A stretch of DNA of 37,812 nucleotides from a virus (taxonomy: Duplodnaviria; Heunggongvirae; Uroviricota; Caudoviricetes). Each line of letters opens with the position of its first letter. Position 1 is the stretch's first letter. Location of the stretch: positions 1 through 37,812 of IMG/VR virus record IMGVR_UViG_2778261419_000004, one strand, 5' to 3'. The notes beneath the pieces are model-generated. The model did no database searches, had not been told where the DNA came from, and was given only the letters and a program-made list of their open reading frames with translations. The translations under genes and the position numbers were made by a program. Below, piece by piece: positions 4,972 to 6,824 of this stretch.

Positions 4972-5277
4972 TCAATCGTAATAAGCTGGAATTGATTTTC
5001 CGCGTTGCTTCTGGCGGCCTGAACAAGTCACACCCATTTCACTGCGTGGCTTGCGGTAGTAAATACGGTTCTGTTTACGCTCGATTTCTTCTGCCTTCTT
5101 GCAGCGAAGGCTTCCGAGTGATGCTGCTTTATCTGCTCTGACGCAACCAGAGAGCTTTAGCGCAATCTTTCGCGCCAGTCGCTGCTCTTGCATTGCCTGT
5201 TCACGTTGAGCCCGTCTGCGTGCTCTGCGGCGATTTCTGGCGTTATCGTCAGCCAGATATGTAATGACTACTGCCAT
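4972..5277 (-). CDS. N: N-like transcription antitermination protein
   Basis: 101 aa; N-terminal arginine-rich motif NARNRRRARRRAQREQ; C-terminus YYRKPRSEMGVTCSGRQKQRGKSIPAYY resembles lambda N (WYSKPGERGITCSGRQKIKGKSIPLI, recalled); first gene after pL and nutL. Confidence 0.85.
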   Translation of the reverse strand: MAVVITYLADDNARNRRRARRRAQREQAMQEQRLARKIALKLSGCVRADKAASLGSLRCKKAEEIERKQNRIYYRKPRSEMGVTCSGRQKQRGKSIPAYYD

Positions 5278-5425: not shown

Positions 5426-5471
5426 CTGCCAATCTGTTCCGTTTGGCTTCCAGCGTCCTGCTGATGGCTAA

Positions 5472-5500
5472 AGAATACTGTAGGTATTTTATTGTGTAAA
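5472..5500 (-). promoter_or_regulatory. pL candidate (-35 TTTACA, 17-nt spacer, -10 TATTCT)
   Basis: Read on the minus strand; both hexamers overlap the operator sites; directs transcription toward nutL and N. Confidence 0.55.
5474..5488. promoter_or_regulatory. OL operator site 1
   Basis: Palindrome AATAC-TGTAG-GTATT. Confidence 0.65.
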
Positions 5501-5513
5501 TACCCAAGGTATT
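5499..5513. promoter_or_regulatory. OL operator site 2
   Basis: Palindrome AATAC-CCAAG-GTATT, 25 bp centre-to-centre from site 1. Confidence 0.65.
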
Positions 5514-5543
5514 TATTTTTGGTGAAATAATGATAAGCAAATG

Positions 5544-5558
5544 AATACAAAGGATATT
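5544..5558. promoter_or_regulatory. OL operator site 3 (weaker, unusual spacing)
   Basis: AATAC-AAAGG-ATATT, one mismatch; 45 bp centre-to-centre from site 2. Confidence 0.4.
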
Positions 5559-5644
5559 TATTTTTTCGGTGTCTGCTTGTTCAGTGCTTTTTATGCGGGA
5601 TATGTGAAGTGGATCCCGATAGCTATTGCTGCCGGGATTATGGG

Positions 5645-6013
5645 TTAGTCAGCGAAGGTTAAGACGAGAATTAACTTAATGATGTCTGCTACAACAGACA
5701 CGGCCATAGATAAACCAAAGACAATCCAAGCCATAGAGATGTCTTCACTACCATCGTATAGAGTTCCGTAATCACTGGTGTAAGGCGTAAATGTCGCGCC
5801 TTGATACAATAGGTATAAGCTTGATCCATAGAGGATAAATGCAGATATCCCTTGTATTGCTATGATCACCAGAATCATGAAACGAGCTGATCTATGCGCC
5901 CAAGCCTGGCTTATTTTTTCTGATAGAGATTTCGCAATAAAAGCATGCGCTAAGCCGTAAATTGTCGAGATTGCCAACATCCCAAAAAAGCTTGCTATAG
6001 CGGTTCCAACCAT
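5645..6013 (-). CDS. Small multi-pass membrane protein coupled to cI (candidate exclusion protein)
   Basis: Track ORF 5645..6034 begins with TTG one nt after the cI stop; a more likely ATG at 6013 follows AAGGGG. Three or four hydrophobic helices; same transcript as cI. Confidence 0.65.
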   Translation of the reverse strand: MVGTAIASFFGMLAISTIYGLAHAFIAKSLSEKISQAWAHRSARFMILVIIAIQGISAFILYGSSLYLLYQGATFTPYTSDYGTLYDGSEDISMAWIVFGLSMAVSVVADIIKLILVLTFAD

Positions 6014-6030
6014 AAGCGCCCCTTGCGTGA

Positions 6031-6747
6031 TCAAACCAGCCTTAGTTTTGTCTCAATTGCAACGCCTATAATCTTGCAGTTTCCATTGATTGGCACGAGA
6101 GGCCATGCAGGGTTAAGTCCCTTGAGGTATTTATTTCCGCCGTCGATTATCAGCTTCTTGAATGTTGCTTCGTTAGAGTCAGAAAGTTTTGCTATAACCA
6201 AGCTGCCGTTGATCGCCTCCCTTCCGGTATCGAAAAGAACGAATGTTCCCTCTGGAATGCTTAACCCAACCGGTGCCGTCATTGAATCACCTTCCACTTT
6301 AAGCCAAAACGCATTACCTTGAATATGCGCGTCAGACTCAAGCCAAACATCTACGTCTTTAATGGTGTATGGTTCGCATGCTTCACACCACGAGCCAGCC
6401 TGGATACTGCTTAACACCGGATACCTCTTTCCTGCTCTGTATTCCCCTGCATACCTTACGTTGGCATCGCTCTTAAGGCTTTCTGCCTGTTCTGCAACCT
6501 TGGCAGCAATTGACTGGCTAAAATCAGCAATTGAGACTTGCAACAATCGTGCAAAACCAGATGCAACCTCAACGTTTAGCGCGTTTCTGCCATTAAGATA
6601 ATGCCCTACCGCTCCTTGGGTGATACCCAGTTCATCAGCGATTGAGTATTGGGTTATTCCCAATTCTTTCTTTTTTGACTCATACAAAGCCTTAAGCCGC
6701 TTAGCGTCTTCGAGCTGTTCTGTCGTCAGTGATTTTTTATTTTCCAT
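6031..6747 (-). CDS. cI: CI repressor (HTH plus LexA-like S24 autopeptidase domain)
   Basis: 238 aa; LTTEQLEDAKRLKALYESKKKELGITQ resembles lambda cI; C-terminal FWLKVEGDSMTAP...ATFKKL carries the Ser/Lys autocleavage motifs; leaderless start next to OR3. Confidence 0.9.
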   Translation of the reverse strand: MENKKSLTTEQLEDAKRLKALYESKKKELGITQYSIADELGITQGAVGHYLNGRNALNVEVASGFARLLQVSIADFSQSIAAKVAEQAESLKSDANVRYAGEYRAGKRYPVLSSIQAGSWCEACEPYTIKDVDVWLESDAHIQGNAFWLKVEGDSMTAPVGLSIPEGTFVLFDTGREAINGSLVIAKLSDSNEATFKKLIIDGGNKYLKGLNPAWPLVPINGNCKIIGVAIETKLRLV

Positions 6748-6753
6748 AGCTTA

Positions 6754-6782
6754 ATTCTAATAGCTAAGGTACTTAAACTAAA
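6754..6782 (-). promoter_or_regulatory. pRM candidate (-10 TAGAAT on minus strand, weak -35)
   Basis: TAGAAT ends about 6 nt before the cI ATG, consistent with a leaderless transcript; overlaps OR3. Confidence 0.4.
6759..6773. promoter_or_regulatory. OR3 operator site
   Basis: AATAG-CTAAG-GTACT, two mismatches from the palindrome; 24 bp from OR2 centre. Confidence 0.5.
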
Positions 6783-6797
6783 AATACCCTGAGTATT
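6783..6797. promoter_or_regulatory. OR2 operator site
   Basis: Palindrome AATAC-CCTGA-GTATT. Confidence 0.65.
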
Positions 6798-6824
6798 GAT
6801 TGCTTTGAATACCTGTAGTATTCT
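6796..6824 (+). promoter_or_regulatory. pR candidate (-35 TTGATT, 17-nt spacer, -10 TATTCT)
   Basis: Hexamers overlap OR2 and OR1; same -10 hexamer as the pL candidate; GGAGAG lies 7 nt before the cro ATG. Confidence 0.55.
6807..6823. promoter_or_regulatory. OR1 operator site
   Basis: 17-bp palindrome GAATAC-CTGTA-GTATTC, 25 bp from OR2 centre; overlaps the pR -10. Confidence 0.7.

Follow-up and report, generated by a model that had tools for sequence, protein, structure and literature searches.

[quoted passage not shown] Given the gene position and the membrane location of its product, an anti-phage role of HkaS is plausible, and the reading preferred here, to which a little less than an even chance is given, is that hkaS is an accessory gene in the repressor operon that would guard the lysogen against superinfecting phages at the inner membrane. 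The gene is not a new sighting, since it is already annotated in the record of phage HK620 (AF335538; 2001 genome paper), where it carries the name hkaS and its product is given as "unknown" (protein AAK28867). In the literature on hkaS and on gene function in HK620 and mEpX2, no paper addressing hkaS was found.

The hkaS gene in the presumed cI-hkaS operon

An earlier note on this DNA had described a membrane-protein gene of 122-129 amino acids on the cI strand, directly after cI and before OL/pL; ORF calls and operator positions agree with this placement, and regarding the length the 122-residue form holds while the 129-residue form does not. When counted from its TTG codon the mechanical ORF (5645-6034, minus strand) encodes 129 amino acids, and 2 nt of this TTG lie within the stop codon of cI (6031-6033), whereas the ATG at 6013-6011 gives 122 amino acids and a gap of 17 nt to the cI stop. 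The 122-residue form is taken to be the real gene because of the spacing of the ATG from a Shine-Dalgarno sequence (Table 1), because all homologues in the alignment are 122 amino acids long and begin with the same Met (MVG, MIG or MMG), and because a purine block resembling a Shine-Dalgarno sequence is conserved 5-8 nt 5' of the start in eight diverged variants or loci. It is also the form annotated in the HK620 and mEpX2 records. The TTG start at 6034 was dropped in favour of the ATG on the strength of the homologue alignment and the upstream purine block, and the seven-codon extension that the TTG would add is probably not translated.

Table 1. Features of the repressor operon and its surroundings in the window, with the hkaS homologues of the second genomic context (positions refer to the window unless a retrieved locus, L, is named)
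Feature	Position	Strand	Basis or remark
Gene for an N-like antiterminator at the head of the pL operon	4972-5277	-	PHROG 271, E 1e-35; weak Pfam N_peptide match
pL (5465-5500) with OL1 (5473-5489) and OL2 (5498-5514)	5465-5514	-	exact match to HK620 sites; promoter scan 5500-5472
Operator-like site GAATACAAAGGATATTT	5543-5559	.	within HK620-annotated tIMM (5533-5563); matches OL1/OL2/OR1/OR2 half-sites
GC-rich hairpin with a C-rich tract before it, without U-tract	5613-5638	-	9 nt past the hkaS stop; MFE -13.7 kcal/mol, z -2.9
hkaS CDS, 122 aa plus stop	5645-6013	-	ORF, homologue alignment, Shine-Dalgarno sequence, PHROG 6534, AlphaFold2, purifying selection
Seven in-frame codons added to the mechanical ORF by the TTG start	6014-6034	-	absent from all homologues
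Shine-Dalgarno sequence AAGGGG	6019-6024	-	5-nt spacing to the hkaS ATG; read from the sequence
cI repressor (HTH_3 + Peptidase_S24), leading gene of the putative cI-hkaS operon	6031-6747	-	Pfam; 99% identical to HK620/mEpX2 cI
OR3-OR2-OR1 region, presumed site of pRM	6758-6823	.	exact matches to HK620 annotated operators
hkaS of the second context	L104: 4224-4592; also L103, L105, L106 and L007: 51-419		

Past hkaS the hairpin, the left operators with pL, nutL and the N-like antiterminator follow in this order on the same strand. A consensus promoter scan found no internal promoter for hkaS between the two genes or inside cI, and pRM was not picked up by such a scan in the OR region. In the proposed scheme cI and hkaS would be transcribed jointly, from pRM in lysogens and from pRE while lysogeny is being established. 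Since cI, hkaS, pL and N share one direction, a terminator would be needed after hkaS in the lysogen, and the hairpin is a candidate for the element that terminates the cI-hkaS transcript or otherwise forms its 3' end. An analogous, non-homologous hairpin follows the hkaS stop in all six variants that were folded, and the C-rich tract is found in every lineage; because every diverged lineage has a hairpin of unrelated sequence at this place, hairpin and C-rich tract together (5613-5647) suggest a selected 3'-end element, possibly Rho-dependent. Since the U-tract is missing from the window hairpin, any termination there may be either intrinsic or Rho-dependent.

Two elements of this interval were set aside. 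The tIMM element of HK620 was rejected as a terminator because it looks like an operator (Table 1); the operator-like site within it is conserved in all diverged loci and is probably the true third left operator. The site that the HK620 record annotates as OL3 (5520-5536) is a poor match to the operator half-sites. A hydrophobic ORF of 35 amino acids on the plus strand (5541-5648), which converges with hkaS and which some phage records seem to annotate, is conserved solely where the underlying hairpin DNA is homologous; since it is absent from lineages without shared hairpin DNA, it is probably spurious.

Regarding linkage to the repressor, in 92 of 94 loci hkaS is preceded, at a distance of 17-20 nt, by the end of a cI-type S24 repressor gene, and all of the phage records with this cI (16/16) carry hkaS, which is found in no other phage record. 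The pair occurs across virion types, in the podovirus HK620, in the siphoviruses mEpX2, HK140 and HK630 and in Stx2c phages. Elsewhere, next to related repressors (62-77% identical), the slot is empty or holds an unrelated gene. A Buttiauxella locus (L018: 3330-3977 and 3064-3249) has a different cro and a repressor with an unrelated N-terminal DNA-binding HTH domain, while the C-terminal S24 domain of this repressor is as in the window cI and hkaS is retained. The comparison indicates a recombination joint inside the Buttiauxella cI, with hkaS staying with the C-terminal half; this chimera therefore ties hkaS to the slot, through the 3' half of cI, and not to the specificity for the operators.

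Family, second context and selection

An 801-bp region containing hkaS in the window, which overall is a mosaic P22-like genome, is 98-99% identical to the corresponding regions of HK620, mEpX2, HK140, HK630, HF4s, HZ41, phi296/phi367 and 611R6 and of two Stx2c-converting phages. The window protein is 97-98% identical to the hkaS product of HK620 and to the mEpX2 CDS, and it aligns over its full length with PHROG 6534, a family that has no assigned function (E 1.3e-78, profile positions 1-122 of 122). A word-indexed search among 5.8 billion proteins returned 14 HkaS clusters at 90% identity, all of them close relatives, and when 1.84 billion representatives were searched exhaustively with an HMM profile, one full-length cluster at 50% identity and a 44-amino-acid fragment were all that was found. 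The hosts are E. coli, Salmonella, Hafnia and Buttiauxella. Among 5426 complete E. coli genomes, 146 (2.7%) carry hkaS, in every case on the chromosome.

Homologues that are 80-86% identical to a cI-linked allele lie in a second context (Table 1), the interval between Q and the lysis genes, which in Stx phages is the place of the Stx toxin genes. The order there is the Q antiterminator, a KAP-family NTPase on the opposite strand, tRNA-Met/Phe/Thr, a gap of 20 nt and hkaS, followed by two terminator-like hairpins and genes for a phage-21-type holin, lysozyme and spanin; no S24 repressor was seen in the retrieved part of the second-context phage. Common to both contexts are the ORF, about 15 nt with the ribosome-binding site and, past the stop, a short C-rich stretch, and nothing else, so that, judged from these loci, hkaS behaves as a mobile accessory gene (moron). 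Inserted antisense between Q and the tRNAs, the KAP-family P-loop NTPase gene (L104: 5759-7081, plus strand) is possibly a further moron of the defence type.

That hkaS is a real gene under purifying selection is seen at several depths of divergence. Every one of the 83 near-identical copies found in the retrieved loci is intact. Among E. coli alleles dN/dS is 0.19 for hkaS versus 0.018 for the adjacent cI, and in comparison with the Hafnia-type allele it is 0.14 for hkaS and 0.03 for cI; dS in the latter comparison is nearly equal in the two genes (0.72 and 0.74, respectively), which indicates that cI and hkaS diverged together. At greater divergence both genes have reached saturation at synonymous sites, with dN of 0.32-0.48 in hkaS versus 0.08 in cI, while length and register are kept in homologues down to 52% identity. 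Though constrained, the HkaS protein evolves 5-10 times faster than the cI repressor.

The membrane protein and its proposed function

Kyte-Doolittle hydropathy and AlphaFold2 both give three long hydrophobic helices (approximately residues 2-27, 45-72 and 92-120), so that of the three or four helices proposed in the earlier note three are retained and the fourth is not. The AlphaFold2 model, which was built from a 10-sequence alignment (pLDDT 92.1, pTM 0.79), places the helices at residues 2-28, continuing to 37, 40-72 and 88-120, with a short beta-hairpin at about 73-87, and both methods show almost no soluble domain. The loop at residues 28-44 is basic (K28, K33, R41, R44), and the loop at residues 73-91, which contains the beta-hairpin, is acidic and aromatic (D81, D87, E90, D91); on account of these charges the positive-inside rule predicts an inner-membrane topology with the N-terminus outside and the C-terminus inside. 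Among ten lineage representatives the predicted periplasmic loop is the most variable region of the protein (11% invariant versus 30-36% elsewhere). Invariant or nearly so are the motif Q-x-W-x-H-x-x-A-R-F at the predicted cytoplasmic end of helix 2, YLLY at its predicted periplasmic end and VLTFAD at the C-terminus, where the window protein ends in LVLTFAD; conserved polar residues within helices or at their ends are Q53, D109 and K112.

HkaS gave no match to Pfam (none at E<=1), NCBIfam or PDB sequences, and no family among the PADLOC-DB 2.0 defence-system models at E<=10; the fold search returned generic helical bundles alone, with no significant match among viral structures. The Pfam search recognised its positive controls, namely lambda RexB (8.5e-92), P22 SieB (4.3e-29), P22 GtrA (3.2e-15) and the P22 holin gp13. 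The statement of the earlier note that the protein does not resemble RexB is borne out, as the Pfam RexB model (PF15968) finds lambda RexB and not HkaS and hhalign gives a probability of 0.5%; similarly, hhalign probabilities were 0.3% for SieA (the P22 type, one of three SieA sequence types) and 0.2% for the P22 holin. There was no Pfam match to holins, to SieB (PF14163) or to the GtrA flippase (PF04138), and no gtrB or gtrC neighbours are present in the window. Thus no sequence or fold likeness to known exclusion or abortive-infection proteins was found in these searches, and homology to a characterised protein of another function, the outcome that would have spoken against the earlier proposal, was found in none of Pfam, PADLOC, NCBIfam, PDB and the viral structures.

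Regarding function, a part in defence of either kind, whether by blocking entry or by abortive infection, is given an even chance or marginally better. HkaS would insert into the inner membrane in the predicted orientation, with the variable loop 73-91 toward the periplasm and the conserved Q-x-W-x-H-x-x-A-R-F loop and VLTFAD C-terminus toward the cytoplasm, and acting at the inner membrane it would shield the lysogen from superinfecting heteroimmune phages. Interference with genome entry, in the manner of P22 SieA, T4 Imm and HK97 gp15, would be the likeliest mechanism and killing of the infected cell a less likely one, since no partner or sensor gene lies between cI and OL, since HkaS has almost no soluble domain, since the predicted periplasmic loop evolves fastest, and since the homologues of the second context lie upstream of the phage's own lysis genes, where a self-triggered suicide effector would be costly. 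As a specific claim, that HkaS blocks the entry of superinfecting genomes is nevertheless tentative and less likely than not. Counting against it are the characterised occupants of the slot, as RexAB, BstA and the 933W protein Stk, which is likewise encoded downstream of the repressor, act by abortive infection, and also the linkage of hkaS to the immunity module, unlike P22 sieA or HK97 gene 15 (virion module); in addition, the faster evolution of the loop may reflect mere low constraint.

Abortive infection proper would make HkaS a dormant effector, set off via its conserved cytoplasmic face by a product of the superinfecting phage, that depolarises or permeabilises the inner membrane, in the way of RexB but without a RexA-type sensor. 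The shared slot with rexAB and bstA, the conserved Q53, D109 and K112 together with the conserved cytoplasmic loop, and small-xxx-small packing motifs in the sequence that are compatible with an oligomeric pore would all suit such an effector, but it is judged unlikely, given that there is no sensor partner gene, no RexB homology and no self-immunity element identified, that the helices number three and not four, and that homologues lie past Q beside the lysis cassette, where a phage-triggered suicide protein would hurt its carrier.

The same homologues, one lineage of which lies directly upstream of holin-endolysin-spanin genes, bear on the distinctly improbable alternative that HkaS is not an anti-phage protein and instead modulates a host inner-membrane protein or the timing of phage lysis or induction (holin- or antiholin-like), thereby making the lysogen fitter or the burst better timed. 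HkaS has the size, the three helices and, as predicted, the N-out/C-in topology of a class I holin, and the slot can hold non-defence morons (in phage Huey, PagP is one of the features listed where the repressor matches). Against a lysis function, two terminator-like hairpins separate hkaS from the holin gene in cassettes that are already complete, there is no charged C-terminal tail and no holin Pfam match, even though the P22 holin control was recognised, and a holin-like protein made constitutively with cI would be hazardous.

It is very improbable that HkaS is a repressor-stability factor in the role of 434 Hex, which would modulate the RecA-dependent cleavage of its cognate cI and so set the stability of the lysogen. 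The Buttiauxella chimera, in which hkaS follows the cI C-terminal S24 cleavage domain and not the operator specificity, and the same position of 434 Hex would be in keeping with such a factor; being adjacent, however, is enough to link hkaS with the 3' part of cI, hkaS is missing beside repressors whose C-terminal domain (or whole protein) is 71-77% identical, hkaS homologues exist without a nearby cI, a nearly all-membrane protein is an unlikely ligand of RecA or the repressor, and HkaS has no likeness to Hex. Finally, that hkaS is a passenger without selected function or a mis-called ORF, as its very narrow family and fast protein evolution relative to cI might suggest, is scarcely credible in view of the intact copies, the dN/dS of 0.14-0.19, the length and register kept to 52% identity despite saturated synonymous sites, the conserved Shine-Dalgarno sequence and the confident AlphaFold2 model.

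Returning to the preferred reading of a guard at the inner membrane, a more far-reaching version of it is possible but doubtful, in which HkaS, its fold unrelated to those of known exclusion or abortive-infection proteins, is a new anti-phage membrane protein that needs no second gene and is carried on a minimal cassette that has moved between two lambdoid moron slots. If this were true, the ORF, its ribosome-binding site of about 15 nt and a short C-rich tail would travel together between the repressor operon (lysogen-expressed) and the Q-tRNA-lysis interval (late-expressed), so that HkaS would protect the membrane in lytic growth as well as in lysogens. The region that follows the repressor gene of a prophage, transcribed throughout lysogeny, has already given RexAB, BstA, Hex and Stk, and a membrane-defence candidate such as HkaS would not surprise a phage biologist. 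As a defence factor HkaS would represent a new single-protein membrane mechanism and would affect predictions of phage-host range for lysogens of this immunity type; if it is not one, hkaS is one more orphan moron. The gene is present in tractable model phages, namely HK620 and the K-12 phages mEpX2, HK140 and HK630, and also in Stx2c-converting phages.

Comparison with known systems in or near the slot

The earlier note had likened the position of the gene to those of rexA-rexB in lambda and sieB in P22. The lambda analogy is sound, as rexA and rexB sit between cI and OL, with rexA between cI and rexB; the P22 analogy fails, as sieB has a promoter of its own on the opposite strand, past gene 24 (N), and nothing lies between c2 and OL (L102: 29758-30336 and 30893-31013). 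HkaS resembles lambda RexB in the slot between cI and OL, in strand, in presumed co-transcription with cI and in being a small polytopic inner-membrane protein, and differs from it in the absence of any sequence or profile likeness and in having three helices, RexB having four. No rexA-type partner is found beside hkaS, which begins 17 nt past cI, and no other ORF fits. The further claim that the slot is a site of lysogen-expressed exclusion genes agrees with the recognition of the cI-to-N interval as a mosaic hotspot of lysogen-expressed defence genes, e.g., bstA and rexAB (PMC8585504).

BstA of BTP1 and Hex of phage 434 resemble HkaS in being encoded directly after the repressor gene (for Hex, PMC3564112); these two systems are expressed in lysogens, as is presumed for HkaS, and have exclusion phenotypes. 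BstA works where phage DNA is being replicated (PMC8585504), and PADLOC, which is assumed to include BstA models, gave HkaS no match. The annotated Hex has no relation to HkaS and combines a signal peptide with a non-membrane body. At the start of the 434 gene after cI (L017: 2409-2813), which is annotated as "repressor protection protein" (Hex), a typical signal peptide is encoded, which fits poorly with the reported cytoplasmic action on RecA-mediated repressor cleavage.

T4 Imm and HK97 gp15 are inner-membrane blockers of phage DNA entry. With these and with P22 SieA, also an inner-membrane blocker of phage DNA entry (PMC10883804), HkaS would share its proposed mode of action, and all are stand-alone small inner-membrane proteins made from a prophage or an infecting phage. 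SieA differs in that it has no homology to HkaS and in that sieA adjoins the ejection-protein genes with its own promoter, outside the repressor operon.

Class I holins (lambda S, P22 gp13) are similar in size (about 105-120 amino acids) and in having three helices, and their N-out/C-in topology would fit the one predicted for HkaS from its charges; in one lineage hkaS comes shortly before a lysis cassette. HkaS differs from them in having neither a holin family match nor a charged C-terminal tail, and its gene is in the repressor (lysogenic) operon. With HkaS of HK620 there is no substantive difference: the gene, the cI, the position and the operators are the same as those of the window copy, the window being a different mosaic P22-like genome.
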